From IMG/VR virus record IMGVR_UViG_3300010274_000001, positions 1-41,354 of that record: a stretch of DNA of 41,354 nucleotides, one strand, 5' to 3'. A program made the position numbers and the translations under genes. Position 1 is the first letter of the stretch. Each line of letters opens with the position of its first letter. Below are positions 640-41,354 of this stretch, in pieces. The DNA is from a virus. The notes under the pieces are model-generated. The model made no database searches, was not told where the DNA came from, and saw nothing but the letters and a program-made list of their open reading frames with translations.

Positions 640-772
640 ATAGGACTTAATAAAGCTATATATACTGTGTAATTAGGTTACTGCTAAGCATTGCTGAGGC
701 AATGTGAGGCTAACTGAAGGCACCGTGTATATAGCAAAAGTAAACCATAAAATTAAAAAGGGGGAATAAAGT

Positions 773-1876
773 ATGGCAGAGTTATTTAGACCTATATCAC
801 CTGATAAACAAACTTTAGGCCAAGCACCAACTAATAGAGATAACCTTAAGGACCTTTTTACCTTAGAAGTACTATCATATTTCTATAAAAAGAACATCTT
901 TAGACCACTATTAAGAACTAGAGACATTCCTGAAGGTAATAAGTCTGCAGTGTTCGAGGTTTCTGGTAAGGCAGCAAAAGGTGTCTTATTTAGACCAGGG
1001 GACACTTTGGACAAAAAAGGAGTGCCCCATGCACGCAAAATCATCAACATTGATGGCTTAGTTGTAGCCAGTGACTGGATATTCAAGCTTGATGATTGGC
1101 TAGCACATTGGGATGTAAGGAATGAACATGCTCAAGCTTTGGGAGTTCAATTGGCTGAAGCAGTGGATAGGAATTTATTTGCGTCCGTATTGAAAGCTGC
1201 AGCAACCAACAAAGCGCTGGTGAAGAATCCTGATGGCACTGAAAAAACATTAAGTGGCAAAGTTATAAACATGCCTGATACTTCAGGTATTGTAAAGGTA
1301 TCAGACATAGATTCCAAAGATGACGTTATATTGTTCTTTGAAGCCGTGAGAAAAGCTAGGACAACATTTAGAAAGATGAATGTATACGACCAGGAGTTAT
1401 ATCTTGCAATATCACCTTCAATGTATGAGAAGTTATTTAACTATCTTGACCTAATTTCTGCAGACTACAAGGGTTCTGGTTCTATAGCTGAAGGTGAATT
1501 GCCACGATTGTTTGGTTTTAACATTGTTGAGTCCAATGTATTCTATGAAGGTGAAGGTGATGATAACGATTTGGGTGAACTTGACACAGACACAGGACCA
1601 GAATATAAAACAGCAACCATTGGGGAAGATTGGTCTGGTGACGGTGGGATAAACCACAAAGTTACAGTTAAAGGTGGTGGCTTATTAGCCGTTGCATTTA
1701 CCCGTGATGCTGCTGCTATGGTAAACTTGAAAGATATTTACGTTGAAGAAGACTATGATATCAAAGAGAAAGCCACCTATATCACTGCTGACCTTGCTGC
1801 AGGATTTGACTCCTTCCGCCCAGAATGTGCGATAGCAATAATGGGTAAGGGTGGTTCATTGGTATTACCTAGCTAG
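773..1876 (+). CDS. Major capsid protein, T7 gp10-like
   Basis: KIINIDGLVVASDWIFKLDDWLAHWDVRNEHAQALGVQLAEAVDRNLF parallels T7 gp10 KVITIDGLLTADVLIYDIEDAMNHYDVRSEYTSQLGESLAMAADGAVL. The C-terminal FRPECAIAIM matches LRPEAAGAVV. It has an SD (aaaaaggggg) and is followed by a strong terminator. Confidence 0.93.
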   Translation: MAELFRPISPDKQTLGQAPTNRDNLKDLFTLEVLSYFYKKNIFRPLLRTRDIPEGNKSAVFEVSGKAAKGVLFRPGDTLDKKGVPHARKIINIDGLVVASDWIFKLDDWLAHWDVRNEHAQALGVQLAEAVDRNLFASVLKAAATNKALVKNPDGTEKTLSGKVINMPDTSGIVKVSDIDSKDDVILFFEAVRKARTTFRKMNVYDQELYLAISPSMYEKLFNYLDLISADYKGSGSIAEGELPRLFGFNIVESNVFYEGEGDDNDLGELDTDTGPEYKTATIGEDWSGDGGINHKVTVKGGGLLAVAFTRDAAAMVNLKDIYVEEDYDIKEKATYITADLAAGFDSFRPECAIAIMGKGGSLVLPS

Positions 1877-1889
1877 TTTTAATTTTAAG

Positions 1890-1927
1890 CCCTTCGGTAG
1901 TCATAGAACTATCGAAGGGTTCTTTCC
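1890..1927 (+). terminator. Intrinsic terminator after the capsid gene
   Basis: 12-bp stem cccttcggtagt/actatcgaaggg (one G-U pair), loop cataga, then a T-rich ttctttcc tail. Confidence 0.8.
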
Positions 1928-1973
1928 CTAAACATTCTTTATAACTTTCCTCTATTTATCGTTTTTCCAATTC

Positions 1974-2080
1974 TACCTAAGCGTAGGAGCCCCTAGGAGC
2001 TTTTCAATATCCCTCCATGACGAATTACCTTAGTTGATAGAGTAAAATCGATTGTAGGTTATGCTAGGCACCATAACGTT
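1974..2080 (+). promoter_or_regulatory. Conserved intergenic module, copy A (ahead of the tail/core/terminase gene block)
   Basis: Blocks TACCTAAGCGTAGGAGCCCCTAGGAGC ... TGACGAATTACCTTAG ... GTAAAATCGATTGTAGG are shared with 19376-19486(+), 27641-27747(-) and 34572-34678(-). It ends 55 nt before the gp11-like start codon. Confidence 0.8.
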
Positions 2081-2135: not shown

Positions 2136-4775
2136 ATGACCCGTGAAGAAGCTGTAAAACGTGTTCTATTGGTAGTTGGAGAAAATCCTATTACTGTATC
2201 CCAAAATGATGAAGTTTATCAGATGGCACAGCAGCTATTAGATATGATAACTCTTGATGTATTAGGAATGGGATGGCGTTTTAATACACACTATCTTGAA
2301 GATGGAACGGAGGCAATAGACACTTATGTAGTTGATGTTGATGATTACACTACTGAAGAAGACCTTTTTAATGCTAACTTTGCTGCTATTCCAGTTCACA
2401 TACAGCAAGTTATAGTAGCTAGGACAAGTTATGAATTTTCTTTAGGCTATACTGGTGAAAACTTATTTAGTGAAGACCTTAGTAAGATGTATCTTATGGC
2501 TTTACAGCAAGCTAGAGGCACTGAAGTTATGCTTAGTGCTGAATTGATTGACTTTGAACGCATTTATAAGAACGTAGCTAGCCAGTTATTGAATGAGGAG
2601 GGCTGGTGGTGGAATACTACAGAGACTGGAGAAGACTTTCAGACCAATATACCCTTAAATCTGCCACCAATTGCCGACAGTTATGCTAAAATTAAGGCTC
2701 AAAGGCTATTTCAGGCTTATAATACAGCTAATGTAGAGTTAATGTTAAATCCAACGCCTGAAGAAAAGGAAATATATGCCCAAATGGTTAAGCAAAATAG
2801 GCGACATTTTCTGCGTTCACTACCTGTTGAGGAGTTAAGAGACTCTTATATTAACGAATTAAGGGCTGAAGGGATTACTTCAGCGCTTACATACGATGAA
2901 GCAAGATTCAGTGATGCTCTTGCAGCGTCATATGCTGACATTAAAGCTAAGCGAATGTACATGTTGGTAACCGAAGAAGACAATAGGGAAGCTTATATTA
3001 ATCCTTCACAGGATGAAATTAACCTTTATACACGCTTAAAGGCACGTCAACTAAACAAAGTTAGTCATTTTGATGACCTAGAAGCACTAACACAGGAAAT
3101 AGAAGACCAGCTAAAGAATGAGATAGGCTGGTATTTTAACACTGAGCTGGATGAATTTGGGCAAAAGAAGCTAAAAGAAGTTATAGTATTGCCTGAAGAG
3201 GTTAAAGCATATGCTAAATTAAAGGCACGAAGGTTATTTAATGCTTTCCAGCGTACTGGTGGTGATGCTAATCTTGTAAATACGCCAACGCCTGAAGAAA
3301 CTCAAGCATATCAGCAGCTATGGCTAAAGAATCATAGTTACTGGCTTGAGAGTGAAACTTTGGAACAATTTAGGGATAGCATTATACAGGCTTTAAATTC
3401 CGAAGGGCTTACACAATATTTAAGTTATAGTATTGAAACTAATGGGTTAATAAAACAGTATGCAAACTTAAAAGCTAAAAGATTATATAGCTTATATAAT
3501 TCTATAGACCCTACACCTTTTATTAATGCTACTAAAGAAGAAGAAGATTTATATAAAAGAATATTGATAGAATTAAATAAGCCAACAAAAGTAAATGAAA
3601 GTAATATAGCAGAAGCAGTAGCTTCTTTAACAAAAGTTCCTGCCAATGACCCTTCAATAGTTCATTATGCTCGAATGAAAGCTAATAGGATTAATTATGC
3701 TTATGAAACTGGTAATATGGAATTACTGATAAATATGCCTCCAGAAGAACTTCAAGCATATCAGGCAATACTGTTAAAGTCTAAGCGTGAAAAGTTCAAT
3801 ATAACTTTAGAAAACCTTTATAATGAAATTTTAAACAGTGTGTTAGCTATGTTTCCTAATATCAACGAAACTAATGCTACTGTGGTCGAGTATGCAAACT
3901 TAAAGTCTAGAAGATTATATGCACTGTATACCGAACTAGACCCAAACTTTGCCCAGCAGCCTAATGATGAAACACAATTGTTACAAGAACTTTATAGACA
4001 AAACTTAACATCCGAATTACAGCAAACAACCTATGATGATGTATTAACAGCAATTAGACAACAATTGTTAAATGAGGCTGGTTGGTGGTATAACACATCA
4101 ACCGATGCTGATGGCAATTTAATAACTAGAATACCAGATACATTGCCTGAAATAGTTGAACAGTATGCTGTAGCCAGAGCTAAGCGATTATATAGGGCGT
4201 ATCAGAACAATCAAATGGAACTAATATTGAATCCTTCACCTGAAGAACAAGAGTTGTATTCTAAGATGTTAGAGATGCACAATAGGGTTACTCGTGGTGG
4301 TAAGTCGTTAGAACAACTAAAAAAAGATATATTGACAGAGGTATTATTAGAAGGCTGGAGTTTTAATATTAAAGAACAGCCGTATAGAGAAATTAAAGCA
4401 GCAAATTTAGTATTATTAAAGGCCACTGCATTGTATCCGCAATTAAAAGTATATGTAGATAAAGATAACAAGATTATAGACCATAAAACATATGCTGAGA
4501 TTCCAGAAGAAACTGTAGTTCAAGTTGTACATAAAGTTGCATACGATGAACTGCCTGAGTTATTTAAGTTGTACATTGATATGAAGGCGTCAAGAATGTA
4601 CAACTATTATAACACTATTAATAGTCAAATCAATTCACCACTAGCTTGGGCAAGACCAACTGCGGATGAATTATTGTTGTTTCAGAAACTAAAGACACTA
4701 TATGCTGTAGATATTGAAAATGCGAATATATTAGAAAATGACACACTCCAATATTGGGGGAGGAGATATAGATGA
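2136..4775 (+). CDS. Tail tubular protein A / adaptor (T7 gp11-like), greatly expanded by internal repeats (879 aa)
   Basis: ATG at 2136 follows aaaggagg. The N-terminus VLLVVGENPITVS...AQQLLDMITLDVLGMGWRFNT matches T7 gp11 ILASIGEPPVSTL...[20 protein letters not shown]. The C-terminus ELPELFKLYIDMKASRMYNYY matches [22 protein letters not shown]. There are 8 clear YAxxKAxR(L/M)(Y/F) copies (plus one degenerate copy) and 5 GWxxN copies. Confidence 0.85.
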   Translation: MTREEAVKRVLLVVGENPITVSQNDEVYQMAQQLLDMITLDVLGMGWRFNTHYLEDGTEAIDTYVVDVDDYTTEEDLFNANFAAIPVHIQQVIVARTSYEFSLGYTGENLFSEDLSKMYLMALQQARGTEVMLSAELIDFERIYKNVASQLLNEEGWWWNTTETGEDFQTNIPLNLPPIADSYAKIKAQRLFQAYNTANVELMLNPTPEEKEIYAQMVKQNRRHFLRSLPVEELRDSYINELRAEGITSALTYDEARFSDALAASYADIKAKRMYMLVTEEDNREAYINPSQDEINLYTRLKARQLNKVSHFDDLEALTQEIEDQLKNEIGWYFNTELDEFGQKKLKEVIVLPEEVKAYAKLKARRLFNAFQRTGGDANLVNTPTPEETQAYQQLWLKNHSYWLESETLEQFRDSIIQALNSEGLTQYLSYSIETNGLIKQYANLKAKRLYSLYNSIDPTPFINATKEEEDLYKRILIELNKPTKVNESNIAEAVASLTKVPANDPSIVHYARMKANRINYAYETGNMELLINMPPEELQAYQAILLKSKREKFNITLENLYNEILNSVLAMFPNINETNATVVEYANLKSRRLYALYTELDPNFAQQPNDETQLLQELYRQNLTSELQQTTYDDVLTAIRQQLLNEAGWWYNTSTDADGNLITRIPDTLPEIVEQYAVARAKRLYRAYQNNQMELILNPSPEEQELYSKMLEMHNRVTRGGKSLEQLKKDILTEVLLEGWSFNIKEQPYREIKAANLVLLKATALYPQLKVYVDKDNKIIDHKTYAEIPEETVVQVVHKVAYDELPELFKLYIDMKASRMYNYYNTINSQINSPLAWARPTADELLLFQKLKTLYAVDIENANILENDTLQYWGRRYR

Positions 4776-16167: not shown

Positions 16168-16381
16168 GTTATCTAAAGATGAAAAACTAAAAAAGAATTT
16201 AGATGACTTATATTATGACACTGTGGAATATTTATTGGAAAAGGTGCAAAATAAGGAATTGATTGCTACTGATATTACAAACATAATAAGGCTTTTAAAA
16301 GAAACAGGGACTATAATAAATGATAAAACATCTGAAGATAGTTTAGAATATATTGAATTACCTTTTATAGAGGATGAGTGA
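16160..16381 (+). CDS. Putative small terminase subunit (gp18 position), 73 aa
   Basis: It sits immediately upstream of, and overlaps, the large terminase. It is small, acidic and helical. The call is by position only. Confidence 0.45.
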   Translation: MPRLSKDEKLKKNLDDLYYDTVEYLLEKVQNKELIATDITNIIRLLKETGTIINDKTSEDSLEYIELPFIEDE

Positions 16382-18090
16382 TGCCTATGAATAAAACAGC
16401 CTATTATACAGCGCTACAAAAAAACTTCAAAAACTTTCTATACCTAATATGGCATTACTTAAACCTTCCAGCACCAACTAAAAGACAGTATGAAGTAGCA
16501 GATTACCTTCAACACTCTGAGAGCAAACGTAGGATAATAGAAGCTTATAGAGGTTTTGGAAAGTCTTGGATAACTTCAGCATATGTTTTATGGAAGCTAT
16601 TTAAGAATCCTAATGAAAAGATTCTAGTGCTTAGTGCTTCCAGAGATAGGGCGCAGAATTTTACTAACTTTACCCAAAAGTTGATTATAACTATACCAGA
16701 GCTACGCTTTATGGTCCCTCCAGCGTATATGAGATGGTCTTCAACTAGCTTTGACATAAACGGTGCTTTGCCTTCCCATGCGCCCAGTGTGAAAGCTAGT
16801 GGTATCTTTTCACAGATAACAGGTGCTAGAGCTACTGAAATAGTCTTAGATGACGTAGAAACTATTAACACAGTTGAAACCGAAACAATGAGAAATAAGC
16901 TATATACAACACTATCTGAAATAGAAAACATAGTTATGCCAGAAGGATACATAACATACCTTGGAACACCACATAGTATGGATAGTATATATGGACCAAA
17001 CAAATTGCTTTCTAGGGGTTATGATGCCTTTATAGTACCAGCAAGGTACCCTAAAATAGAAGATTTACACCACTATCATGGGAAATTATCTCCATTTATA
17101 CTTCAGGAGTTGATGGAAAATCCCGAGTTAGAAGGACAACCAACAGACAGGTACACTGAAGAGGAATTGACAATGCGTGAATACACTGGTGGGCGTGCCA
17201 ACTTTTTAATGCAATACATGTTGGATACTTTTGAAACAGATGAGAGAAAATATCCATTGCAGCTGAAGAATTTTATAGTAATGGATACAGACAAAATTAA
17301 GGCTCCAGTAAGTATAAAACATTCACTAAAAGATGAGCATAAGCTAAGTGCATACACTAATTTAGGTATTGCAGGAGATGATGGTTTATATATGCCTTCT
17401 AGAGTAGATGAAGAATGGCTTAAATATGATGGCATTTATATGGCTATAGACCCTGCAGGAAAGGGTGTAGACCAGACAGCGTATGTTGTTATAGGGCAGC
17501 TTAACGGAAACCTTTACATTCTTGACCTGGGTGGTCTAGAAGGTGGCTATGATGAAAACACACTAACTATACTAGCACAGAAAGCTAAGGAATATAATGT
17601 TACTAGAATATATATTGAAGCTAATTTTGGGGATGGTATGTTTACAAAGCTATTTCAGCCAATACTGCTAAGATTTCATCAGTGTGTTGTAGAAGAGGTT
17701 AAACAGTTTACCCAGAAAGAGAAGCGAATTATAGATACACTAGAGCCAGTATTGTCACAACATAGGCTGGTTATAGATACCGAAGTTATTAATAGGGAGT
17801 ACAATTTATATCTTAGAAATGATTTATATGTGTACTCTTTATTGTATCAGATGACAAACCTATGTGATATGAAAGATGCACTTAAACACGATGATAAAGT
17901 CGATGTTTTAGCTATTGGTGTAAAGGCATGGCAGCAAGCGTTAGGCTTAGATACTGAAAAAGTTTTAGAGGAATATAAAGAACAGCAACTAATGGAGCTT
18001 TTAAAACGTAGAAGCGAATCTGTTTCAGTGTTTAATAAGAAGAATACATATGCACCAAAAGATGAACGAACGCTGTTTTTAAACTTCTAA
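16381..18090 (+). CDS. Terminase large subunit (T7 gp19-like)
   Basis: Walker-A-like YRGFGKSWITS, a Walker-B-like hydrophobic strand ending in DD (EIVLDDVE), and a C-terminal nuclease-type region (AIDPAGKG...). Size is 569 aa. ATG codons at 16381 and 16387 are both possible starts. Confidence 0.88.
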   Translation: MPMNKTAYYTALQKNFKNFLYLIWHYLNLPAPTKRQYEVADYLQHSESKRRIIEAYRGFGKSWITSAYVLWKLFKNPNEKILVLSASRDRAQNFTNFTQKLIITIPELRFMVPPAYMRWSSTSFDINGALPSHAPSVKASGIFSQITGARATEIVLDDVETINTVETETMRNKLYTTLSEIENIVMPEGYITYLGTPHSMDSIYGPNKLLSRGYDAFIVPARYPKIEDLHHYHGKLSPFILQELMENPELEGQPTDRYTEEELTMREYTGGRANFLMQYMLDTFETDERKYPLQLKNFIVMDTDKIKAPVSIKHSLKDEHKLSAYTNLGIAGDDGLYMPSRVDEEWLKYDGIYMAIDPAGKGVDQTAYVVIGQLNGNLYILDLGGLEGGYDENTLTILAQKAKEYNVTRIYIEANFGDGMFTKLFQPILLRFHQCVVEEVKQFTQKEKRIIDTLEPVLSQHRLVIDTEVINREYNLYLRNDLYVYSLLYQMTNLCDMKDALKHDDKVDVLAIGVKAWQQALGLDTEKVLEEYKEQQLMELLKRRSESVSVFNKKNTYAPKDERTLFLNF

Positions 18091-18865: not shown

Positions 18866-19093
18866 ATGGCAGTGCGTATTAAGCTTAGGAGAGGCACAAA
18901 AGAGGAGTGGGAACAATATAATCCCATCTTAGCTTTAGGAGAAATAGGGCTAGAATATGTTATTGACCCTATAACATCCAGTATAACGGATTGGACCCTT
19001 AAAGTTGGAGATGGTGTGCACACATGGTTAGAACTTGATTATCCTGAGGTAGGCATTGTAAGTGATTGCATTATTGATGGAGGTGTTGTCTGA
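18866..19093 (+). CDS. Standalone Mtd-N / tail-fibre N-terminal-domain-like mini-protein (75 aa)
   Basis: MAVRIKLRRGTKEEWEQYNPILALGEIGLE...LKVGDGVHTWLELDY matches the fibre N-terminus (MANVIKFKRGTT...GEIAID...IKVGDGLTAWNNL) and the N-terminal motif of Bordetella phage BPP-1 Mtd (QFRGGTTAQ...VHDGATAGG). SD aaaaggaggtg. Confidence 0.7.
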   Translation: MAVRIKLRRGTKEEWEQYNPILALGEIGLEYVIDPITSSITDWTLKVGDGVHTWLELDYPEVGIVSDCIIDGGVV

Positions 19094-19359
19094 TGGCAAC
19101 TAAAATCAGGATGAGAACAGATACATTAGAAAATTGGACTAATGAAAATCCAAATCTTATTAAAGCAGAATTTGCTATTACTAACTTTGAAAGAGTGTTT
19201 CAAGATAGAGAGGCTAACAGAACACAAATAATTGTAGGGGGTGATGGGATTTCATGGAATGATAGTAGACGTTTAAATACAAGAAGTGCGGATGCTGTTA
19301 TAGATTGTGGTGACCTTGCTATAGAAACAATGGATTCCATGAGACATATTAAGGATTAA
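19093..19359 (+). CDS. Second standalone Mtd-N-like mini-protein (88 aa), more diverged
   Basis: MATKIRMRTDTLENWTNENPNLIKAEFAI...IIVGGDGISWNDSRRL. TGATG start/stop overlap with the upstream ORF. Confidence 0.65.
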   Translation: MATKIRMRTDTLENWTNENPNLIKAEFAITNFERVFQDREANRTQIIVGGDGISWNDSRRLNTRSADAVIDCGDLAIETMDSMRHIKD

Positions 19360-19375
19360 TCAGCATTCCATAGGT

Positions 19376-19486
19376 TACCTAAGCGTAGTAGGTCCTACGT
19401 TGATTCAGACATAGCGTTCTGATAGATTATATAGGTTGGAAGGGTAAAATTGATTGTATGGCACATGAGAGCCCTTTATGGGCTTA
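19376..19486 (+). promoter_or_regulatory. Conserved intergenic module, copy B (ahead of the TM-protein and fibre genes), the most diverged copy
   Basis: TACCTAAGCGTAGTAGGTCCTACG ... TGATAGATTATATAGG ... GTAAAATTGATTGTATGG aligns with copies A, C' and D'. It ends with an AGCCC-tttat-GGGCT hairpin, 24 nt before the ATG at 19511. Confidence 0.75.
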
Positions 19487-20020: not shown

Positions 20021-23000
20021 ATGGCAAACGTAATAAAGTTTAAACGTGGAACTACAGCTAATGTTGCAAAATTAAATGGAGTAGACCTGCCACTATTACA
20101 AGAAGGTGAAATAGCAATTGATATCACTACAAAAACAATCAAAGTTGGAGATGGTCTTACTGCCTGGAATAATCTAAGAGGTATCAACGCTGATACTTTA
20201 GATGGTTTTCATGCTAGTCAAAACGCCGATGCTAATAATGTAGCAGTTAGAAATGCTGATGGCAAATTGGTTGGAGACATCTTAGGCAACTCTGAAACAT
20301 CTACTAAACTTAAGACGTCACGAACATTATCACTCAGTGGTGACGCCACTGGTAGTGCTTCTTTTGATGGTTCGGCAAATGCTACAATAGCAACTACTGT
20401 TAATAATGCTGCTCAAGCTGCTAAACTTACTACAGCTAGAATTATAGCACTCAGTGGTGATGCTTCAGGTAGCACAACTTTTGATGGTTCAGCTAATGTC
20501 ACTATATCAGCTACAGTCAATGATTCAGCCAAAGTAGGAGGATATAGTCCTTCAGAAACTGTTGAAGCTAGTACAGTTCCTGTAAGAGATGCTAATGGGG
20601 CTTTACCAGGGAATATAACTGGAAATGCTGCTACAGCTACAAAATTGGCTACAGCAAGAACTATAGCACTCAGTGGAGATGCTAGTGGCAGTGTCACTTT
20701 TGATGGCACTGCAGATAAGACTATATCTACTACAGTGTCTCAAGCGGCTAAGCTTAAAACACCTAGAACGATAACCTTAAGTGGTGACGTAAGCGGCAGC
20801 ACTAGCTTTGATGGTTCTACAAATGTTACAATAAGCTCTACAGTCAATGATTCAGCTAAAGTAGGAGGTTACAGTCCAGCTACAACAGCTACAGCTAATG
20901 CTGTTGCTGTTAGAGATGAAAACGGTAAATTGGCTGGGGATATATTGGGAAACGCAGCCACTGCTACTTTAGCTGCTGATGCTACAAAATTAGCAACGGC
21001 AAGAACTATATCACTCGGTGGCAACGCTTCAGGTAGTGCCAATTTTGATGGAAGCGCTAATGTTACTATATTAGCAACAGTCAATGATTCAGCCAAAGTT
21101 GGTGGATATAGCCCTTCAACAACTGCTACAGCCAATGCTGTTGCTATTAGAGACGCTAACGGTAAATTGGCTGGAGATATCACTGGAAATGCAGCTACTG
21201 CTACTTTAGCAACCAGTGCAGATAAGTTGACTACAGCAAGAACAATTACACTTAGCGGAGGTGTCACAGGTAGCACAAACTTTGATGGTTCTACTAACAC
21301 AACCATAGTAACAAATGTAACTGGTGACAGTCATTATCATACAATATCAACAATAACAGATATAGCCAATGCTAGTGTTTCGCAAGCTAATAATGCGACT
21401 AAATTAAACAATTATAGCCCGTCTACATCAGCTACACCTAGTACAGTGGCAGTTAGAGATACCAATGGTAAATTAGCTGGAGATATCACTGGAAATGCTG
21501 ATACTGTCGATGGATTCCATGCTAGCCAAAGCGCTACAGCTAATAGCATTGCTGTGAGGGACGCTAGTGGTAAACTAGCGGGCGATATTACTGGAAATGC
21601 TGCTACTGCAACTAACGCTAGCAAGTTAGCAGGCTTACTTCCTTCTACAATTAATGAACCAAACACAGTTGTTGTAAGGGATTCAGATGGTAACATAGTT
21701 GGTGGCACTATTGTTGGACAAATTGATAGCGCAGACAAAGTTGATGGCTTTCACGCTAGCCAAAGTGCTATACCCAATAATGTAGCTGTAAGGGATGCTA
21801 ATGGTAAGCTTCCAGGTAATGTTTTGGGTCATGCTGAAGCTACATATGAAGAGCTAATAGAGCTTTCGGAGGATGTAGATGACGTTATAGGTTTTGCAGG
21901 TTATGAAGGTTCTGGTATATTAGGGTTAGAGTGGGATGTACCTAGTGGAACAGTAAGAAGACTGGGAGCTGCTGTAGGTAAGAATGGTGGCGCAGACTTT
22001 GACCAATATAATATGTATGGTGGGCGTAAGCGCTGTATTTTAACCGATGATGGCGTCCGTCTTGCTTACTATGGTGAGCCCGGATTTACTGAGACAGGTA
22101 AGCTTGAGGAAGAACTTACTATAGGAGGTGTAACTTATCCAGTAGGCACTCCTGTTCAGGTGATGGTGGAACAACCTGTGTTTTGGTATAAGACGGTACC
22201 ATTGAAATTTAAAAAGATACCAGGGCAAGATGGGCTAACTGTCCAAAAAATACGTTACTATATTTCTGATACAGCTAGACCGGGCTTTAAACGACATCCA
22301 GCATTTTATACTAGGACTCCCGATAGAAAACCTGTAAATTATATATATTTAGGAGCTTACGAAGGCTGTACCTATGATAGTTCAACTGGTGAATATCTTT
22401 TGAATGATGAATCTGGAATAGATTTTAACAACGATAAATTGTCTTCAATAGCTAATGCTATCCCAACTTCTACAGCTAATAACTTTTTCAGATTCACTAG
22501 CGCACAACAATTAGTTAAAAATAGAGGTAATGGTTGGCAATTAAATGATATTTTTTCTTTATCAGCAATACAAATATTATTTGCTATAGAATATGGTTCG
22601 TTTGATTCACAAGCAATGCTAGGAAACGGCGTGAATGGTCGTATATCTACCGGGTCTACATCAACATTTGGAAATGTATCTGGTGTAAGCCAGAATAATG
22701 CTATAACTTATAGAGGACAGGAAAATTTATGGGGAAATACTGAAGAATTAATAGACGGAGTAAATATATATGCAACAGGGACAAAAGTTAAAGCATATAT
22801 ATCTTATTATGATTTTGAGGCTGCTAAAGATGCCAAACCTTATTTTGACGTGGGCTTTGATTTGGCTACAGGAAATAATTATATTAGTGCTATAGGTTGG
22901 TCTGAAATATGCGATTTTACATTTTTGCCAACAGAAAACGAAGGTCTTGCAAGTAAACCACTTCATGATGTTTATTTTTCTGCTGTTCAAGCACAAGGTT

Positions 23001-25195
23001 TTAAAGCTTTTTTATTTGGTGGAGGTATTTCAGCAGCTAGAACTGGGCTTTTTTATACAAATTGTTCCAGTGGTTATCTTACATCAGCTTCAGCGTTAGC
23101 CGCTCGTATTATATATGTTCCCACTAATGACCCGACAAAACTGTCTATATCAGATAAAACTATACATCTTATAGGCGATGTTACGGGCAGCACAGCCCTT
23201 GATGAGACCACCAATGTCTTTATAACCACCACAGTAAACAATTCAGCCAAACTAGACGGCAAAAGTCCGTCTACATCAGCTACAGCCAATACAGTCCCAG
23301 TTCGTGATTCCACAGGCAAGCTAGCAGGTGATATAACTGGTAACTCTGCTACAGCTACCAAACTAGTTACCGCAAGGACTATTAGTCTTACAGGAGACGC
23401 AACAGGCAGTACTAGCTTTGATGGTAGTGCTAATGCTAGCATAACTGCCACAGTGTCTCAAGCAGCTAAGCTTAAAACACCACGGACTATATCCCTTAGC
23501 GGTGATGTAAGTGGTAGTACAAGCTTTGATGGTAGTGCTAATGCTAGCATAACTGCCACAGTGTCTCAAGCAGCTAAGCTTAAAACACCACGGACTATAT
23601 CCCTTAGCGGTGATGTAAGTGGTAGTACAAGCTTTGATGGTTCAGCAAACGCTACTATAGCTACCACAGTCAACAATGCTGCCAAATTGAACAACTATAG
23701 TCCGTCTACAACGCCTACAGCTAACTCAATACCAGTTAGGGATGCTAATGGACGATTGGTTGGTGATATAACAGGCAATGCTGCTACGGCAACTTCTGCG
23801 TCCAGTGCTGATACGGCTACTACAGCTACTAAGCTTGCTACAGCACGTACTCTAGCCTTAAGCGGTGATGTAACAGGCAGTGCTTCTTTTGATGGAAGCG
23901 CTAATGCTACCATAAGTGCTACAGTAAACAATGCTGCTCAAGCTGCTAAGTTAGCTACAGCAAGAACTATAACTCTTACTGGAGATGCTAGTGGGAGCTC
24001 AAGTTTTGATGGAACATCCAATGTTTCAATAGCAGCGACAGTTAACAATGCGGCTAAAGTTGGTGGATACAGTCCAGCTACTACAGCTACTGCTAGCACA
24101 GTGGCTGTAAGGGATGCTAACGGTAAGCTTGCTGGGGATATATTGGGAAATGCTGCAACAGCAACTTCGGCAACTAGTGCTACTACAGCAACTAAGCTTG
24201 CTACAGCAAGGACTATTGCACTTACTGGGGATGTTACTGGGAGCACTACATTCGATGGCAGTGCTAACAAAACTATAACTACCACAGTAAACAATTCTGC
24301 CAAAGTTGGAGGATACAGCCCGTCTACGTCGGCTACAGCCAATGCTGTTGCTGTAAGAGACACTAATGGTAAGCTACCTGGCGACATTACTGGAAATGCA
24401 GCTACAGCAACTAAAGCTGATAAGTTGACTACATCCAGAATTATTAGACTTACAGGAGACGTTAGCGGTAGCACACCCTTCGATGGGAGTCGCGATGCTA
24501 CTATAGCTGTTACAGTAGACAACTCTGCAAGGTTAGCAGGGTACAGTCCCAACACTAGCACTGGAGCTAACACAATACCAGTAAGGAATTCTTCGGGAGC
24601 ATTGCCTGGCAATATTTTAGGTAATGCTGCTACAGCTACTAAGCTTGCTACAGCAAGGACTATTGCACTTACTGGGGATGTTACGGGAAGTGCTTCTTTT
24701 GATGGAAGCGCTAATGCTACTATAAATACTACATCTACTATTGCAGGCTTTCCAAAGAGTTCCACTAAGCTAAATGTTGTTACAGGGACACCTAGTGGCA
24801 ATTTAGAAGCCAATAAAATATACTTTTTAGAAACTGGTACACTTTCTTCTGGCACATATTATTTAGAAAAATACATGCCAGTAAATTTAAATTATAGAAT
24901 ATTTGGTACCTTGAATTCAGGTGGTGGCAATACCTCTCTAAGATGGTTAGCTTTAACAGATGACTTAATAGCTTATTCGTATGGGGGTGGTTCTCATTGT
25001 GTGTTTGAAATTGATATTGTTGGTGGCATCGCAATTGGTATATGGCTATTTACCTCTGAAACCAAAATGGCTAATTACAGTAGTGGTATTTTAACAGTCC
25101 CAACTTCAGCTTCTGATTTGCGTTTACGTTTTATAGGGTCTCTTTCTGGTTCGAATTCAGGTTTGCGTATGACAATAACTACCTGGGCAAGATAA
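20021..25195 (+). CDS. Tail fibre, 1724 aa: Mtd-N-like anchor, repeat region, internal C-type-lectin/FGE-like domain, second repeat region, distinct C-terminal domain
   Basis: ATG at 20021 follows aaaggaggt. There are dozens of interleaved repeats of two types: KLxTARTIxLSGDxSGSxSFDGSANxTI and AKVGGYSPSTTATANAVAVRDxNGKLAGDIxGNAATAT. The non-repeat centre spans 21830-23125 and the distinct C-terminus 24738-25192. Confidence 0.9.
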   Translation: MANVIKFKRGTTANVAKLNGVDLPLLQEGEIAIDITTKTIKVGDGLTAWNNLRGINADTLDGFHASQNADANNVAVRNADGKLVGDILGNSETSTKLKTSRTLSLSGDATGSASFDGSANATIATTVNNAAQAAKLTTARIIALSGDASGSTTFDGSANVTISATVNDSAKVGGYSPSETVEASTVPVRDANGALPGNITGNAATATKLATARTIALSGDASGSVTFDGTADKTISTTVSQAAKLKTPRTITLSGDVSGSTSFDGSTNVTISSTVNDSAKVGGYSPATTATANAVAVRDENGKLAGDILGNAATATLAADATKLATARTISLGGNASGSANFDGSANVTILATVNDSAKVGGYSPSTTATANAVAIRDANGKLAGDITGNAATATLATSADKLTTARTITLSGGVTGSTNFDGSTNTTIVTNVTGDSHYHTISTITDIANASVSQANNATKLNNYSPSTSATPSTVAVRDTNGKLAGDITGNADTVDGFHASQSATANSIAVRDASGKLAGDITGNAATATNASKLAGLLPSTINEPNTVVVRDSDGNIVGGTIVGQIDSADKVDGFHASQSAIPNNVAVRDANGKLPGNVLGHAEATYEELIELSEDVDDVIGFAGYEGSGILGLEWDVPSGTVRRLGAAVGKNGGADFDQYNMYGGRKRCILTDDGVRLAYYGEPGFTETGKLEEELTIGGVTYPVGTPVQVMVEQPVFWYKTVPLKFKKIPGQDGLTVQKIRYYISDTARPGFKRHPAFYTRTPDRKPVNYIYLGAYEGCTYDSSTGEYLLNDESGIDFNNDKLSSIANAIPTSTANNFFRFTSAQQLVKNRGNGWQLNDIFSLSAIQILFAIEYGSFDSQAMLGNGVNGRISTGSTSTFGNVSGVSQNNAITYRGQENLWGNTEELIDGVNIYATGTKVKAYISYYDFEAAKDAKPYFDVGFDLATGNNYISAIGWSEICDFTFLPTENEGLASKPLHDVYFSAVQAQGFKAFLFGGGISAARTGLFYTNCSSGYLTSASALAARIIYVPTNDPTKLSISDKTIHLIGDVTGSTALDETTNVFITTTVNNSAKLDGKSPSTSATANTVPVRDSTGKLAGDITGNSATATKLVTARTISLTGDATGSTSFDGSANASITATVSQAAKLKTPRTISLSGDVSGSTSFDGSANASITATVSQAAKLKTPRTISLSGDVSGSTSFDGSANATIATTVNNAAKLNNYSPSTTPTANSIPVRDANGRLVGDITGNAATATSASSADTATTATKLATARTLALSGDVTGSASFDGSANATISATVNNAAQAAKLATARTITLTGDASGSSSFDGTSNVSIAATVNNAAKVGGYSPATTATASTVAVRDANGKLAGDILGNAATATSATSATTATKLATARTIALTGDVTGSTTFDGSANKTITTTVNNSAKVGGYSPSTSATANAVAVRDTNGKLPGDITGNAATATKADKLTTSRIIRLTGDVSGSTPFDGSRDATIAVTVDNSARLAGYSPNTSTGANTIPVRNSSGALPGNILGNAATATKLATARTIALTGDVTGSASFDGSANATINTTSTIAGFPKSSTKLNVVTGTPSGNLEANKIYFLETGTLSSGTYYLEKYMPVNLNYRIFGTLNSGGGNTSLRWLALTDDLIAYSYGGGSHCVFEIDIVGGIAIGIWLFTSETKMANYSSGILTVPTSASDLRLRFIGSLSGSNSGLRMTITTWAR
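23414..23641 (+). repeat. Perfect tandem duplication of a 108-bp (36-aa) fibre repeat unit, 2.1 copies
   Basis: 23414-23521 is identical to 23522-23629, and the next 12 nt match again. Each unit encodes SFDGSANASITATVSQAAKLKTPRTISLSGDVSGST. Confidence 0.9.
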
Positions 25196-25199
25196 ACAA

Positions 25200-25221
25200 A
25201 AGCCTCCCCTAAGGGAGGCTT
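25200..25221. terminator. Bidirectional intrinsic terminator between the convergent fibre and scaffold genes
   Basis: aagcctccc-ctaa-gggaggctt, with T-rich runs on both strands (cttctttctt on +, ttttgttt on -). Confidence 0.85.
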
Positions 25222-25239
25222 CTTCTTTCTTAAGCAGCA

Positions 25240-27640: not shown

Positions 27641-27747
27641 AATGCTATACCCTCTTATTGCCCCTAGAATCCATTTTGTTATAGCGACCAAGGTAATCTG
27701 TCATACGACAACACCCAAAGGCTCCTAGGGGCTCCTACGCTTAGGTA
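27641..27747 (-). promoter_or_regulatory. Conserved intergenic module, copy C' (ahead of the 71-aa, portal and scaffold genes)
   Basis: The reverse complement reads TACCTAAGCGTAGGAGCCCCTAGGAGC (27/27 identical to copy A) ... TGACAGATTACCTTGG ... AAAATGGATTCTAGGGGC ... GTATAGCATT. An 8-bp inverted repeat gcccctag (27660-67) / ctaggggc (27725-32) is present. Confidence 0.8.
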
Positions 27748-27769
27748 ACTTTTGTAATCCTAATAAATA

Positions 27770-29647
27770 CTACAAAACATTTGTTTCACAATCTCCTCCA
27801 GCAGAACAGGCAAATGCTGCTGAAGTGTTGCTATGACTTTCTAAGACTGAGCTATCAATAAGAAACTCTGCTTTCTTTTTGGAAGCTTTCCGAAGTTTCT
27901 TTACCATAGAATCATAGGTTTCTTTGTCTATTACTTCATAAGGTGCTTGCGGGAAGGAGTTATTATCTGGTAGGAACGTTATTCCAACAATTTTGTCCGA
28001 ATATTGCTTTAGCCAATCTTCCACTATTTTCCACTCTATATCATCCTTAACCGTGATAGTAGTGGACGGATTATGGTCTGCCCATACCCTTTCCATCATT
28101 AAATAATACTCAATTTGTTCTACTACGTCTCTATCCCTATGGTTAGGATATTCAAGAGGAAATTCCACAACTAAGGTTTCATTGTTATACACATCTTGAA
28201 ACAATTCAAACCCAAAGCTTTTTAGATAGTCCACCAGTGGGTCATTTTTGTTAATTCGTAACCTTCTAATTACATAACGCCCAAAACTGTTATGTAATCC
28301 AGGCGTGGTGCCTAGAATTTGACTGGCTGTGCCACTAGGCTTAACAGTTGTAATGGCTTTTATTTCAGGAAGTCCATATATTTCTGCTACTTGTTTAGCA
28401 TATTCACGAACTTCTCTACGCAAATCTGTTAGTATTCTTTCGGTATTGAAAGAGTGTTCACTAAGTATTGGATGATTTCTTAAGCCTGTTAAAGATACTC
28501 CCAACAAAGGTTCAGTTTCAGCGTTTTGTTTCCATCGTGGGTCTAATACTGCTGTATAATCTGTATTTAATGACTGTAATATTCCAAGTAGTGTAGCCAT
28601 CTTTGCTTTTACAATAAGCGTTTCTTTTGTGTCATCAGGTTCTACATGGACTTCAGTTAAGTTACAGAATTGAAATGGTCGCAAGATTATTTCGCCACAC
28701 GGATTAGTTCCTAAAAATTGTTCATCGTATAAATCCCTTCTAAGTTTAACCCATTGCTTATCTTTAGCATATTTTCGATTAAAAATTCCAGGCTCACCAA
28801 TGTTATTTGCTTTCCAATGGTGTACTAGGTCTTTTACATTAACCTCAGTAGTATTATCTATTGCAATTGAGACATTTGAATATGCCAACCACGGCTCAGT
28901 TTCCCAAAAGCCATCATATTTAAGGTTAAAAGCGTCCTCATAATCAGCTAAAGCTATACAAGCACTCCTGCGGACGCCTCCTGATATGACTGTATTTGCT
29001 ACAAGATTAGCTAGCGTAAATATTTCTTTTGGTGTCCATTGCTTTCCAGGCTTAGTGGTAAATAACTCTATTGTCTTGTCAAAAAGAAAGCGTAAAGGCT
29101 CAGGTCCACTGGCTGTACCTCCAAATGTTTTTAGAGGAGCTCCAGCTGGTCTAATCAAACTATAATCAAATTTAGGTATCATTCCACCTTGAAGATTGTG
29201 GAGCAAAGATAAAAATGCGTCACGCCAACCTTCTTTAGAGTCCCCAACAACAATGGTAATATTGCCTTCTCTAAACTTTGTAGGTCTAGGAGGAAGTTTT
29301 ATGCTAGCCTTTTCAACACTATAGCCTACACCTACTCCTAGCATTAGTAAAATAAACATATCAGCAAAAGCTTCCCATGAATCAAAAATTAGATAACTAC
29401 AATTGTAGATAGCTTCTGGATAGTATGGAAGCGCCCTGCCTGCTGAAGCTAACCCACGCATTGAGCCTAAAATATCTTTGCTTTTAAACAATGCTATAGC
29501 TGTAACATAATCTTTTGCAACTTCAGGTTTAACAAACTGCCAAAAGTGTTCTTCATATCGTTTAACAGCTTCTTCCCACGTTTCCCCAAAGGACTTTGCA
29601 TAAGTTCTTTTAAATACCAAATCACTGTAAAAGCTTGCAATATCCAT
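27770..29647 (-). CDS. nrdJ: Ribonucleotide reductase, class II (adenosylcobalamin-type, NrdJ-like), 625 aa
   Basis: Active-site stretch TNPCGEIILRPFQFCNLTEV, a single-chain size, and a C-terminal redox Cys pair (ACSAGGDC). Confidence 0.8.
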   Translation of the reverse strand: MDIASFYSDLVFKRTYAKSFGETWEEAVKRYEEHFWQFVKPEVAKDYVTAIALFKSKDILGSMRGLASAGRALPYYPEAIYNCSYLIFDSWEAFADMFILLMLGVGVGYSVEKASIKLPPRPTKFREGNITIVVGDSKEGWRDAFLSLLHNLQGGMIPKFDYSLIRPAGAPLKTFGGTASGPEPLRFLFDKTIELFTTKPGKQWTPKEIFTLANLVANTVISGGVRRSACIALADYEDAFNLKYDGFWETEPWLAYSNVSIAIDNTTEVNVKDLVHHWKANNIGEPGIFNRKYAKDKQWVKLRRDLYDEQFLGTNPCGEIILRPFQFCNLTEVHVEPDDTKETLIVKAKMATLLGILQSLNTDYTAVLDPRWKQNAETEPLLGVSLTGLRNHPILSEHSFNTERILTDLRREVREYAKQVAEIYGLPEIKAITTVKPSGTASQILGTTPGLHNSFGRYVIRRLRINKNDPLVDYLKSFGFELFQDVYNNETLVVEFPLEYPNHRDRDVVEQIEYYLMMERVWADHNPSTTITVKDDIEWKIVEDWLKQYSDKIVGITFLPDNNSFPQAPYEVIDKETYDSMVKKLRKASKKKAEFLIDSSVLESHSNTSAAFACSAGGDCETNVL

Positions 29648-34571: not shown

Positions 34572-34678
34572 AATGCTATGCCCTCTCATTACCCCTAGAA
34601 TCTATTTTACTCTGCCTACTAAGGTAATCTATCAGGACGACCTAAGCAAACGGTCCTAGGGGCTCTTACGATGAGGTA
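34572..34678 (-). promoter_or_regulatory. Conserved intergenic module, copy D' (ahead of the replication gene block)
   Basis: The reverse complement reads TACCTCATCGTAAGAGCCCCTAGGACC ... TGATAGATTACCTTAG ... GTAAAATAGATTCTAGGGGT ... GCATAGCATT. Inverted cccctag (34592-98) / ctagggg (34656-62) is present. Confidence 0.8.
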
Positions 34679-34692
34679 GCTTCTGAAACACA

Positions 34693-35154
34693 CTATCTTT
34701 CTATAAAGTGTTCCAAAAGTTCACGTCGTGTCATGCTACGCGGAAATTCTCTTTCTGGTTCTTCCAACCACTCCTGAGGAACAGTCTTGAATGCATACTT
34801 AAACCCATTTTTCTTGCACCAGTCGCTATACCTTGTAGCAGAGTTCTTATTTATTTTGTTGTCGGTTGAAAAAATGATACGAAGGTCTAAATCAGGATAT
34901 AGCAACTTTACATTCTTCAACTTTGTTCTGTCCTCAGGAAGAAACCAGCCTTTCACCTCCAATGCAATGCCATTAGGTAATACAAAATCTGGTGTATATG
35001 ATGTAAACTTTACATAGTTGAATTTGCGGGGCTCATAAAAAGCTTTTACTCCTCTTTCTTTCAAATCTGCCTCAACCTTCTTTTCGAAAGTTGAGCGTCT
35101 ATAGCGTGGCTTTGAGCCCCAATACTGATATTTTTTCTTCTCAGACATCCCCAC
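34693..35154 (-). CDS. Endonuclease I / Holliday-junction resolvase (T7 gp3-like)
   Basis: SYTPDFVLPNGIALEVKGWFLPEDRTKLKNVKLLYPDLDLRIIFS matches T7 gp3 HTYTPDFLLPNGIFVETKGLWESDDRKKHLLIREQHPELDIRIVFS. Confidence 0.95.
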   Translation of the reverse strand: MGMSEKKKYQYWGSKPRYRRSTFEKKVEADLKERGVKAFYEPRKFNYVKFTSYTPDFVLPNGIALEVKGWFLPEDRTKLKNVKLLYPDLDLRIIFSTDNKINKNSATRYSDWCKKNGFKYAFKTVPQEWLEEPEREFPRSMTRRELLEHFIER

Positions 35155-36923: not shown

Positions 36924-36952
36924 ATTATATCATATAAAAGCTGTCATGTCAA
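36924..36952 (-). promoter_or_regulatory. Sigma-A/sigma-70-type promoter P3: TTGACA-N17-TATAAT with a TGn extended -10
   Basis: The - strand reads cctgtctaTTGACAtgacagcttttatatgaTATAAT. The -35 is at 36952-36947 and the -10 at 36929-36924. It shares the upstream box CCTGTyTA with P1 and P2. Confidence 0.8.
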
Positions 36953-38120: not shown

Positions 38121-38489
38121 TTAGTCTGCCCATGAAGCAACAGCCCAGTAAAAATGATAAAGAATATCTGAAGCCTTACTTGTTGAAGAATATCGCATGC
38201 TAATTATTTCATCACCATAATGATAGTCTATCCTACTTATTTCATCAAAAAATAGCATATACTCATTTTTGGTTTCTTCAGTTCCCGGAAGTGCTAAATG
38301 ATAAGCCCGATATTCCCAATCTTGACAAAAACAAAGAGAATATCCAGAGTATTTCTCTACCCAGTCTACAACACCTTCATATGTTTTCCCTTGCCATTCA
38401 AATGTTTCATCACTATCTTTACCTTCAACAGCTTTTGTAACACTTTCAAAATCTTCCAAACGTTTTTGAAACATTTCTAAAATGTTCAT
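38121..38489 (-). CDS. Early paralog family X, member 3 (122 aa)
   Basis: It shares RLEDFESV..., FEWQGKTYEG..W..KYSG, YRA..L.L, Y.LFF..I.R.DY.YGDE with 38510-38872 and 39490-39873. Confidence 0.7.
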   Translation of the reverse strand: MNILEMFQKRLEDFESVTKAVEGKDSDETFEWQGKTYEGVVDWVEKYSGYSLCFCQDWEYRAYHLALPGTEETKNEYMLFFDEISRIDYHYGDEIISMRYSSTSKASDILYHFYWAVASWAD

Positions 38490-38509: not shown

Positions 38510-38872
38510 TTAATAAGCCCATTTTACAAAACTATGATAAAAATGAATTAAAAATGCAAACTCTTCACAATAGGGAAACTCAGTGAAGACTATTTTTTCA
38601 TCACCATATACATAGTCTACTCTAGGTATTTTTGGAAAAAATAAGAAATATTCTAAGTTGCGTTCGTTGGACAACTCAAACCTAATAGCGCGATATATTT
38701 CATCATCACAACAGGACCCTCCCCATCCTGAATATTTGTCTGCCCATTCTTCATAGCTATGATATATCTGTCCGCGCCACTCAAAATCTTCATCCCAAGA
38801 GACATCTTTGGTGGCTTCTAAAACACTCTCAAAATCTTGTATCCTTTTGTGCAACCTATCTACAATATTCAT
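38510..38872 (-). CDS. Early paralog family X, member 2 (120 aa)
   Basis: RIQDFESVLEA..DFEWRGQIYHSYEEWADKYSGW..YRAIRFELS..EYFLFFPKIPRVDYVYGDEKIV. Confidence 0.7.
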   Translation of the reverse strand: MNIVDRLHKRIQDFESVLEATKDVSWDEDFEWRGQIYHSYEEWADKYSGWGGSCCDDEIYRAIRFELSNERNLEYFLFFPKIPRVDYVYGDEKIVFTEFPYCEEFAFLIHFYHSFVKWAY

Positions 38873-39402: not shown

Positions 39403-39459
39403 CTTAAAAACCTCCTTTAGATTTTTATAATACCTCATAAGGTAAAATATAAAGTAAAG

Positions 39460-39485
39460 CTAGAGAGAGGATAACCTCCCTCTAG
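39460..39485 (-). terminator. Intergenic stem-loop h2 (terminator or RNA-processing candidate)
   Basis: 11-bp stem ctagagagagg/cctccctctag (one mismatch), loop ataa. On the - strand it is followed by a U-rich CTTTACTTTATATTTT stretch and a TACCTTATGAGG box. Confidence 0.55.
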
Positions 39486-39489
39486 CTCC

Positions 39490-39873
39490 TCAGTCTTCCT
39501 CATCTGCTCCTAAAAGTTTAAAATATTCACTCATAATCTCAAAATCTTCTCCATCTAATACTAGAGATGCTCCATCAAACCAGTCAAGGTAATGATATTC
39601 AATCCTTTCTAGTTTTGGAAAATACAAGAAATAATCTTGAGGACCTCCACACGATAATTCAAGTCTCTTTGCGCGGTAGTAATTATCATCATAATATCCT
39701 AGAACATAGTTATTTACCCAGTCTATTATATCTTCATATTCATAATCATTTTCAGTTACTATCTTTTCGTAGTTGTTTTCTTTGAAGTTGCTTAATGCTT
39801 GTTTGAAATCTTCTATCCTTCTTTTCAACTCGTCTTCAATTAATTCACTACATCTTTTGTTTCTATCTCCCAT
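39490..39873 (-). CDS. Early paralog family X, member 1 (127 aa)
   Basis: RIEDFKQAL...YEYEDIIDWVNNY..YYRAKRLELS..DYFLYFPKLERIEYHYLD. SD taaaggaggt. Confidence 0.7.
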   Translation of the reverse strand: MGDRNKRCSELIEDELKRRIEDFKQALSNFKENNYEKIVTENDYEYEDIIDWVNNYVLGYYDDNYYRAKRLELSCGGPQDYFLYFPKLERIEYHYLDWFDGASLVLDGEDFEIMSEYFKLLGADEED

Positions 39874-40993: not shown

Positions 40994-41209
40994 TAAACAG
41001 GGAGTAACAAGCTTGTAAATCATCAATAAAGCTTTGTAACAGTTAAGTAAAACCTACTAAAGTTTAAAAAACTATTAAACACACGATGAATACAGAATTA
41101 CAAGAGGGTTTAATAAATCCTTTATTAGGCTACATAATGTTTTATTAACGCAATATTTACGGGAGTTTTAGAACTTTTTTGAACTTTTGAAGGTCTAATA
41201 TATGAAAGC

Positions 41210-41247: not shown

Positions 41248-41354
41248 ATATCATAAGATAACTAAAGTAGCTTAAGTAACTATAGTAACTTAGGATAATC
41301 TTTTATATCTTTAGTTTTGCTTTTGCTAAAGAAAAACAATAACATAATAAAAGA
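41248..41354. repeat. Right copy of the 107-bp exact terminal direct repeat
   Basis: Identical to 1-107. Confidence 0.9.

Follow-up and report, generated by a model that had tools for sequence, protein, structure and literature searches.

The subject of this report is an intergenic module of about 115 nt that occurs four times in a viral genome from the IMG/VR collection, record IMGVR_UViG_3300010274_000001, of which the full 41,354 nt were analysed and are called the window hereafter. According to the annotation of its open reading frames (ORFs), the window is the complete ~41.2-kb genome of a T7-like podophage, whose capsid-to-fibre block is read on the plus strand, and whose remaining genes, from the small acidic early ORFans to portal and scaffold, are read on the minus strand (Table 1). 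The four copies of the module, named A to D, all have the orientation of the genes downstream of them, and each stands at the head of a delayed gene block: copy A before the tail-tube A gene; copy B before a 90-aa membrane-like ORF (ATG 19511), followed by the 1755-aa fibre gene; copy C before a 71-aa ORF (ATG 27608), the portal and the scaffold; and copy D before a 96-aa ORF (ATG 34531), the primase-helicase and the DNA polymerase. The annotation, which covered every ORF of at least 200 aa and all early ORFs, contains no RNA polymerase (RNAP) and no recognisable sigma gene. This is consistent with an initial annotation of the same DNA, made from its letters and ORFs only, which had noted that a phage RNAP is missing and had proposed the module as the middle/late control element of the genome.

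The existence of the four copies is confirmed. A profile built from them finds exactly four matches in the window, with E = 1e-26 to 1e-31 (nhmmer), and a covariance model scores them with 102-134 bits, at the places where the initial annotation had put them. In addition, the invariant skeleton of block 1, TACCTNANCGTANNAGNNCCTANG, has four exact matches against 0.00 expected from 100 shuffles, and the same figures apply to the invariant skeleton of blocks 2-3. No fifth or partial copy is significant in the window, either with nhmmer --max or with the covariance model run with its filters off; a likeness found in the capsid leader, TAGGTTAC..CTAAGC, was considered as a mini-copy and rejected, as its shuffle test was not significant.

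The four copies align over 120 columns with zero indels. The extent of ~107 nt first assigned to the module was right in location and too short, since conservation starts ~13 nt further 5', where T5, C7 and A10 are invariant. Among the copies, 17-27 of the 27 positions are identical in block 1, 10-15 of 17 in block 2 and 12-14 of 16 in block 3, the last of which holds the TAAAAT of copy A at 2043-2048. Linker 1 is near random (5-8/17 identical), and to this extent the linkers had correctly been called unrelated; nevertheless, their lengths are fixed. Copies A and C share 31 nt at 97% identity, a stretch that covers block 1 and bears out the identity of these two copies over block 1 reported earlier, as do the positions 1984 and 1994 for the direct repeat TAGGAGC in copy A. 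These repeats are 10 bp apart and the TACCTwAG repeats 52 bp apart, which makes both helically phased. Copy B is the most divergent, with a block 1b and a 3' part unlike those of the other copies. The distance from the module to the start codon of the following gene is 55 nt for A, 24 for B, 32 for C and 40 for D, and the Shine-Dalgarno (SD) sequences are found 8-40 nt downstream, so that the interval of 24-55 nt formerly given for the SD is in fact that to the start codons. On the other side, copies B, C and D begin 0-12 nt past the upstream stop codon, with no terminator-like site between.

Regarding elements of known type, Rfam gives 0 matches when both strands of the entire window are searched at E <= 1, a tRNA/tmRNA scan of the window finds none, and no intrinsic terminator, in the sense of a GC-rich hairpin followed by a U tract, occurs inside any copy. 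Two further candidates were discarded, namely a small conserved ORF inside the module, because an ATG is present in A and C only and the peptides are unrelated, and avoidance of the palindrome CCTAGG (4 observed vs 4.4 expected). The repeat is real and clade-specific, and the description of the module as a cis element of fixed orientation ahead of every delayed block was sound; its function is probably cis-regulatory. The element lies outside every described family, and its kind, that of phage intergenic control cassettes, is already known.

To define the distribution of the module, IMG/VR, JGI metagenomes and GTDB genomes were scanned for its pattern, and protein-guided look-ups were added. 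Together these recovered ~35 module instances, all in contigs 94-99.5% identical to the window (contigs are denoted below by L and a number), and at least some of these contigs come from thermophilic biogas reactors (LFRM01; PMC4736482). Judged from these sequence collections, the module is restricted to one species-level clade from biogas-reactor metagenomes, and the number and positions of its copies are constant across the sampled strains. Block-pattern matches in bacterial genomes (L135-L137) and ~100 viral matches to a looser pattern were attributed to chance.

Outside this clade, GenBank phages searched by DNA in near and distant modes include no relative, and the nearest cultured phages reach merely ~44% TerL identity. 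The next relatives, at 59% and 48% identity for the portal and 62-66% for the capsid, have collinear T7-like genomes of the one-strand type; at 48-62% protein identity, the module is absent from them. The gaps of these relatives at the endonuclease/primase and reductase/portal junctions measure just 2-13 nt, and for this reason the modules are regarded as clade-specific insertions into plain read-through junctions. Compared with the one-strand relatives L112 and L115, the capsid-to-fibre block (773-25195) is inverted in the window, which results in two convergent arms that meet at the bidirectional terminator listed in Table 1. A homology of the module with the tail-tube promoter region of the relatives was also considered and is not significant.

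The module is, moreover, a place of recombination. In genomes otherwise 96-99% identical to the window, its orthologues are mosaics of different copies: linker 1 of copy B in L036 is D-type (16/17 identical to D vs 6/17 to its own orthologue), and copy D of L146 combines a D-type 5' half with B-type linker 2 and block 3. Such mosaics indicate that gene conversion between copies contributes to the identity of the blocks, and they weaken the earlier argument that selection, and not duplication, explains it. In some strains, the 3' edge of copy D is an insertion hotspot. In L067 (1-210) and L081 (1-310), module D is separated from the next ORF by a gene for AdoMet decarboxylase (Pfam AdoMet_dc, E = 3.5e-39), and a different extra ORF is found at the same edge in L146, with a duplicated GCATTGAGAAAAATAAAA junction.

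The reading that we prefer, tentatively and at somewhat less than even confidence, is that the module is a transcribed leader or intercistronic element that is recognised by its sequence and that carries a processing-type helix in copies C and D. It is favoured because B, C and D are read through and because A is preceded by a candidate late promoter, discussed below. Copies B, C and D must be transcribed, given that they follow stop codons without a terminator and that the corresponding junctions of the relatives are of the read-through kind; for copy D in particular, no terminator separates it from the consensus early promoter upstream (Table 1), whose transcripts should traverse it.

The structural evidence comes from the complementarity of block 1 to block 3 plus the adjoining AAUGAGAGG. 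In all C and D variants, block 1 and block 3/4 can form an irregular helix of 20-22 bp (duplex z -2.8 to -4.5), which includes G-U pairs and is thus valid on the sense strand alone. Of the four copies, D alone folds with significant stability (z -2.5 to -3.6 for the whole module vs shuffles). A ~20-bp irregular helix with an internal loop, which is an RNase III-type feature, is seen in C and D, is marginal in A (z about -1) and is not seen in B. The helix named P1+P2 is 78.5% paired and has 2 pairs changed on both sides, values that are reached by 2-4 of 500 shuffles. The inner-helix pairs 30-100 and 36-94 have compensatory changes in the B lineage. Two outer-helix pairs, compared by eye, also differ between copies: the A-type copies have A-U and G-C, D has C-G and U-A, and B and C have mismatches at both.

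On the preferred reading, the host RNA polymerase would start at upstream promoters, i.e., the consensus early ones in the right arm and sigmaE-like late ones in the left arm, and would read into the cassette. This would act once transcribed, either as a 5'-leader RNA element (A) or as an intercistronic one (B, C, D), at the boundaries of the delayed blocks. The conserved blocks, together with the helix between block 1 and block 3/4 in C and D, would serve as a recognition and processing site that may uncouple the downstream block from the upstream message through endonucleolytic processing, mRNA stabilisation or factor loading. We infer a cassette functional as RNA, the type of processing it would undergo, and a sequence-specific factor that would recognise its blocks.

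A comparable arrangement exists in T7, where RNase III sites have this uncoupling role, and for which Dunn and Studier reportedly described in 1983 the sites R0.3 to R18.5, with promoter + R-site pairs at gene-block boundaries; Bacillus phage SP82, for its part, has Bs-RNase III sites. Like the module, the T7 sites are related intergenic elements of ~60-100 nt, sense-oriented, located at gene-block boundaries of a T7-type genome and inside host-polymerase read-through transcripts, and the irregular ~20-bp helix with an internal loop that is typical of R sites is matched by copies C and D. However, the module has no sequence similarity to them, its copies A and B are without a long helix, and the 53-nt domain enclosed by the helix carries conserved linear blocks; cleavage at the module would be by analogy with T7.

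This phage group repeatedly has long hairpins in its leaders and between cistrons. In the window, the 5' untranslated region of the capsid gene (641-750, plus strand) contains a ~100-nt long hairpin of -36.6 kcal/mol (z -4.5), and the capsid leaders of the relatives form hairpins as well (z -4.6 in L142 and -2.9 in L112, with L115 folding well too). Between window and L142, the apical 7-bp stem covaries (GCAUUGC/GCAAUGU vs GUAUUGC/GCAAUAC). Another hairpin of ~100 nt (z -2.85) lies at 21238-21385 of L112, the 59% relative, between two genes for internal virion proteins, and is closed by a 14-bp helix, GAAGGCUCCUAGCA/UGCUAGGAGUCUUU (CUCCUAG/CUAGGAG), which resembles the GCCCCUAGGA/UUCUAGGGGC helix of the module. 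In addition, the 3' strand of C and D, AATGAGAGGGC[A/T]TAG, is identical in 16 of 17 positions to the 3' strand of the capsid-leader hairpin of L112, and a local alignment of the module with that leader is borderline (p 0.007-0.016). At the level of sequence, homology between the module and these capsid leaders is no more than suggested.

Several observations speak against a transcribed, processed element. No fold is common to all copies (RNAalifold gives -1.2 kcal/mol on 16 distinct variants), and the folding of A and B does not exceed that of shuffled sequences, with z from -0.2 to +0.7. The mosaic copy D of L146, which is widespread, breaks both compensatory inner-helix pairs, the covariation stems from few independent events within one species-level clade, and that of the outer helix requires a 2-nt register shift in A-type copies. 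The covariance-model search proposed at the outset recovers the four copies of the window, and in the relatives' capsid leaders it yields nothing significant. Blocks at fixed spacing and without structure suit DNA recognition equally well, and the folds were computed at 37 C, with a host that is probably thermophilic. The 5' leader RNA that the initial annotation had offered as a second possibility agrees with the surroundings of the copies.

Among the alternatives, the strongest, which we consider somewhat less likely than the preferred reading, makes the module a promoter region for the host RNA polymerase that depends on an activator or on an appropriated sigma factor. In this layout, TGAyAGATTACC... 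would be the -35-region box and yAAAAT the -10 element, the start would fall near the T/A step that ends GATTsTA, and block 1 with its two TAGGAGC would be an activator site centred near -63; one early phage protein would then switch on all four blocks, as Ogr does in P2, C in Mu and p4 at the A3 promoter of phi29. Several observations agree with it. The blocks are rigidly spaced with no RNA fold common to all of them, the repeats have a helical phasing of 10 and 52 bp, and all four paralogues in the window have AAAAT, with A at position 2 and T at position 6 of the hexamer. None of the four gene blocks is served by a sigma-70 consensus promoter, copy A comes right after a strong terminator, at a place where the relatives have a promoter, and in the most divergent A orthologue all 8 substitutions (8/8) avoid blocks 1-3.

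The details of the sequence are less favourable to a promoter. The sigma-70 consensus scan finds no promoter inside any copy, and the best pair of hexamers, TGAyA and TAAAAT, is 20 bp apart in every copy, as calculated initially, which exceeds the 16-18 bp of sigma-70. At position D, the orthologues include GTGAAAT (hexamer TGAAAT) in two contigs, L147 and L153, and GTAAAAC (TAAAAC) in six, L146 and L148-L152, from several samples. These are two independent point changes, and they strike precisely the two bases that a -10 hexamer least tolerates losing, the A at -11 and the T at -7, both of which are kept in copies A, B and C; such tolerated variants at the putative -10 element count in favour of the transcribed leader or intercistronic element. 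Moreover, conservation peaks at ATTA..T..GT and GATT.TA.G, i.e., in the would-be spacer and discriminator and not in the hexamers, and the module is missing at the capsid gene, the archetypal late gene. A T7-type promoter, already dismissed in the initial annotation along with a sigma-70 one, disagrees on two further grounds, as there is no RNAP gene and conservation falls in separated blocks over 115 nt and not in ~23 contiguous bp. Readings of the blocks as sites for sigma-54, sigmaH, sigmaB, sigmaD or sporulation sigma factors were tried by eye, and none suits all copies.

The phage group also has a late-promoter motif of a different kind. The relatives share a bipartite motif, tGAACtt-N15-17-GTC(T/A)AAA, on the coding strand and directly upstream of the capsid and tail-tube A genes, with eight sites in four relatives, 7/8 of them intergenic (Table 1). 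The strict pattern, for which chance alone predicts ~0.5 per 41 kb, fits 6/7 of the intergenic sites, the tail-tube site of L112 having AAAC for GAAC. The window has a sole match, in its control region, and both elements of this site are conserved in orthologues that are just 83-87% identical there; no module copy contains the motif. The E. coli sigmaE consensus is GGAACTTTT ... GGTCAAAA, and the motif of the group agrees with it (PMC1312014). The motif is probably the real late promoter of this RNAP-less T7-like group and, in conjunction with the lack of a recognisable phage sigma gene, it implies a host extracytoplasmic function (ECF) sigma factor or a novel factor.

A variant of the motif, listed in Table 1 as a candidate late promoter, adjoins copy A, and in four orthologues of this site 6/6 variable positions are outside its two elements. 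If the site is active, the transcription start would roughly coincide with the beginning of block 1, which would make copy A a 5' leader. Upstream of copies B, C and D, an AAC at the appropriate distance is missing. Promoters of the sigmaE/ECF type resemble the motif of the group, including the variant beside copy A, and are unlike the module, whose blocks 2-3 have neither the AAC typical of the -35 element nor the TC typical of the -10 element.

A factor that could act on the module was sought with Pfam, PHROGs and NCBIfam among all early and unknown proteins, and no sigma factor, helix-turn-helix protein or activator was found; all early proteins are ORFans by these three resources. For one of them, a basic protein of 75 aa, the structure predicted by AlphaFold (pLDDT 69.5) matches nothing in the PDB and is uninformative. 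Taken together, the D-position variants, the separate late-promoter motif and the module-less capsid gene lead to the conclusion that the late promoter itself is probably a different element. The leading proposal, a middle/late promoter built on a GTAAAAT core, is not supported in this form, for these reasons and for want of an activator or sigma candidate; an additional promoter that depends on a factor may nevertheless be present in the module.

Activator-dependent late promoters are known from P2 (PP/PO/PV/PF with Ogr), Mu (late promoters with C) and phi29 (A3 with p4). They share with the module the presence of several copies, each heading a delayed operon transcribed by the host polymerase, a -35 element that is weak or missing, and the conservation of a site further upstream, at about -55 to -82. 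The module differs from them in its greater length (~115 nt), reaching ~25 nt past the putative start, in its 20-bp spacer, in a -10 element that varies in orthologues, in leaving the capsid gene unserved and in lacking an identified activator gene.

A bolder proposal, which we regard as doubtful, is that the module represents a new class of cis element, in which a small early protein would read the blocks, as DNA or as nascent RNA, and reprogramme the host RNA polymerase at four points. Such a class would amount to a new form of sigma appropriation or of processive antitermination, and would give the phage a T7-like class II/III programme without a polymerase of its own.

An improbable explanation is a processive-antitermination site of the nut/put kind. 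The transcribed blocks, with the help of a small hairpin, would either recruit a phage factor or influence the host RNA polymerase directly, and along the long delayed operons this polymerase would no longer stop at terminators and pauses. Lambda nut and HK022 put are antitermination sites which, like the module, are transcribed, sense-oriented, composed of several blocks and placed near operon starts in phages that use the host polymerase. The module is sense-oriented, heads operons as long as ~17 kb and is made up of several short linear blocks whose spacing is fixed; all this would fit, as would the strong terminators of the genome and the need of an RNAP-less phage to drive ~25 kb per arm by host polymerase. 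However, past C and D no terminator is found before the one at the end of the arm, the terminator near A lies upstream of it and not downstream, and four sites exceed the need. The module has no similarity to boxA/boxB, no N- or Q-like antitermination protein occurs among the proteins scanned, and Rfam returned no match to antitermination RNAs.

The last explanation takes the module for a recombination or 'shuffling' cassette, or a selfish repeat, kept by gene conversion and with regulation incidental. The precedent is that of the PeSL (promoter-early stem-loop) cassettes of T4-type phages, in which a sigma-70 early promoter is combined with a terminator-like stem-loop, and of which hyperplastic regions contain dozens (PMC2839356, PMC4122927). 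Both are repeated composite intergenic cassettes that act as recombination substrates and flank variable accessory genes, and the inter-copy recombination and adjoining variable genes of the PeSL type are found at the module; on the other hand, this has no sigma-70 promoter and no terminator-like stem-loop, and its four copies stand at boundaries of core gene blocks. Although the mosaic orthologues and the accessory genes inserted exactly at the 3' edge of copy D (L067/L081, L146) speak for this explanation, it has little probability, because all copies keep the orientation of the downstream genes, their number and positions are the same in every sampled strain, the blocks are conserved between paralogues whose linkers are randomised, and the module occurs nowhere else in the viral, metagenome and genome collections, hence is not a spreading mobile element.

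RNAP-less T7-like podophages are common in metagenomes, and the way in which they time their middle and late genes by host polymerase is largely unexplained. This genome offers two separable candidate control layers, one being the sigmaE/ECF-like late promoter shared with the relatives and the other the clade-specific 115-nt cassette at four boundaries. A true RNA processing or stability site would be an independently arisen functional analogue of the T7 RNase III sites, and a true activator-dependent promoter would point to an unrecognised regulator among the ORFan early genes. The cassette is, in addition, a demonstrable hotspot of recombination and accessory-gene acquisition. Its practical value is limited, given that the phage is uncultured and its host not identified.

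Table 1. Coordinates of the module copies, promoter motifs, genes and terminators (window positions unless a relative is named)
Feature	Position	Strand	Remark
Copy A	1961-2080	+	between capsid terminator and tail-tube A gene (ATG 2136)
Copy A, block 1	1974-2000	+	
Copy A, block 2	2018-2034	+	
Copy A, block 3	2043-2058	+	
Copy A, 3' part	2059-2080	+	
Copy B	19363-19482	+	4 nt past stop of ORF 19093-19359
Copy C	27641-27760	-	~10 nt past ribonucleotide reductase stop (27770-27772)
Copy D	34572-34691	-	directly past endonuclease I stop (34693-34695)
Candidate late promoter adjoining copy A	1942-1971	+	TAACTT-N17-TTCCAAT, motif variant
Late-promoter motif, control region	41171-41198	+	GAACTT-N16-GTCTAAT, points to capsid gene across circular junction
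Late-promoter motif in L112	12401-12427, 13699-13726		
Late-promoter motif in L115	12183-12210, 13400-13427		
Late-promoter motif in L142	1658-1685, 2985-3012		
Late-promoter motif in L143	2808-2835		
Consensus sigma-70 early promoter	36924-36952	-	TTGACA-17-TGnTATAAT, 12/12 matches
Intrinsic-terminator-like hairpin after capsid gene	1888-1921	+	14-bp stem, -21 kcal/mol, z -5.7, then UUCUUUCCC; stands between capsid gene and copy A
Bidirectional terminator hairpin	25198-25223	.	meeting point of convergent arms (fibre on +, scaffold on -); end of units containing copies B and C
Strong terminator-like hairpin within early region	39456-39489		splits early genes
Capsid gene	773-1876	+	annotation
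Tail tube A gene	2136-4775	+	annotation
Nozzle, gp14/15/16-like protein genes		+	annotation
TerL gene	16378-18090	+	annotation
Fibre gene, 1755 aa	19928-25195	+	annotation
Small acidic ORFan early genes	40833 down to 36975	-	annotation
dTMP kinase, SSB-like protein, endonuclease I, primase-helicase, DNA polymerase genes		-	annotation
Exonuclease, dUTPase, ribonucleotide reductase, portal, scaffold genes		-	annotation

The remaining features of the genome can be described briefly. The window ends in a terminal direct repeat of 107 nt (positions 1-107 = 41248-41354), which is present once in the junction-crossing contigs L132 and L118; these read straight through, so that the map is circular or terminally redundant. 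Only three consensus sigma-70 promoters exist in the window, at 40993, 40895 and 36952, all of them early and on the minus strand, and in the consensus scan all have the form TTGACA-17/18-TGnTAnnnT.

The control region at 200-470 contains short direct-repeat arrays, CTTATGC-like at 255-300 and GTACC(A/C)AA at 440-470, as well as a G-rich hairpin at 340-385, which may be origin or packaging signals, by analogy with the short repeats beside the T7 terminal repeats. In the ribonucleotide reductase gene, L035 (4919-5904, the same as L107) has an insertion of ~985 nt relative to the window, at window position ~28698, a possible intron, intein or homing-endonuclease element. The fibre gene comprises, at 20189-24761, many diverged repeat units of ~108 nt and ~237 nt, in up to 12 copies with 60-87% identity. 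Lastly, three of the acidic early ORFans on the minus strand are paralogous (38121-38489, 38510-38872 and 39490-39873), and their DNA repeats have 70-79% identity.

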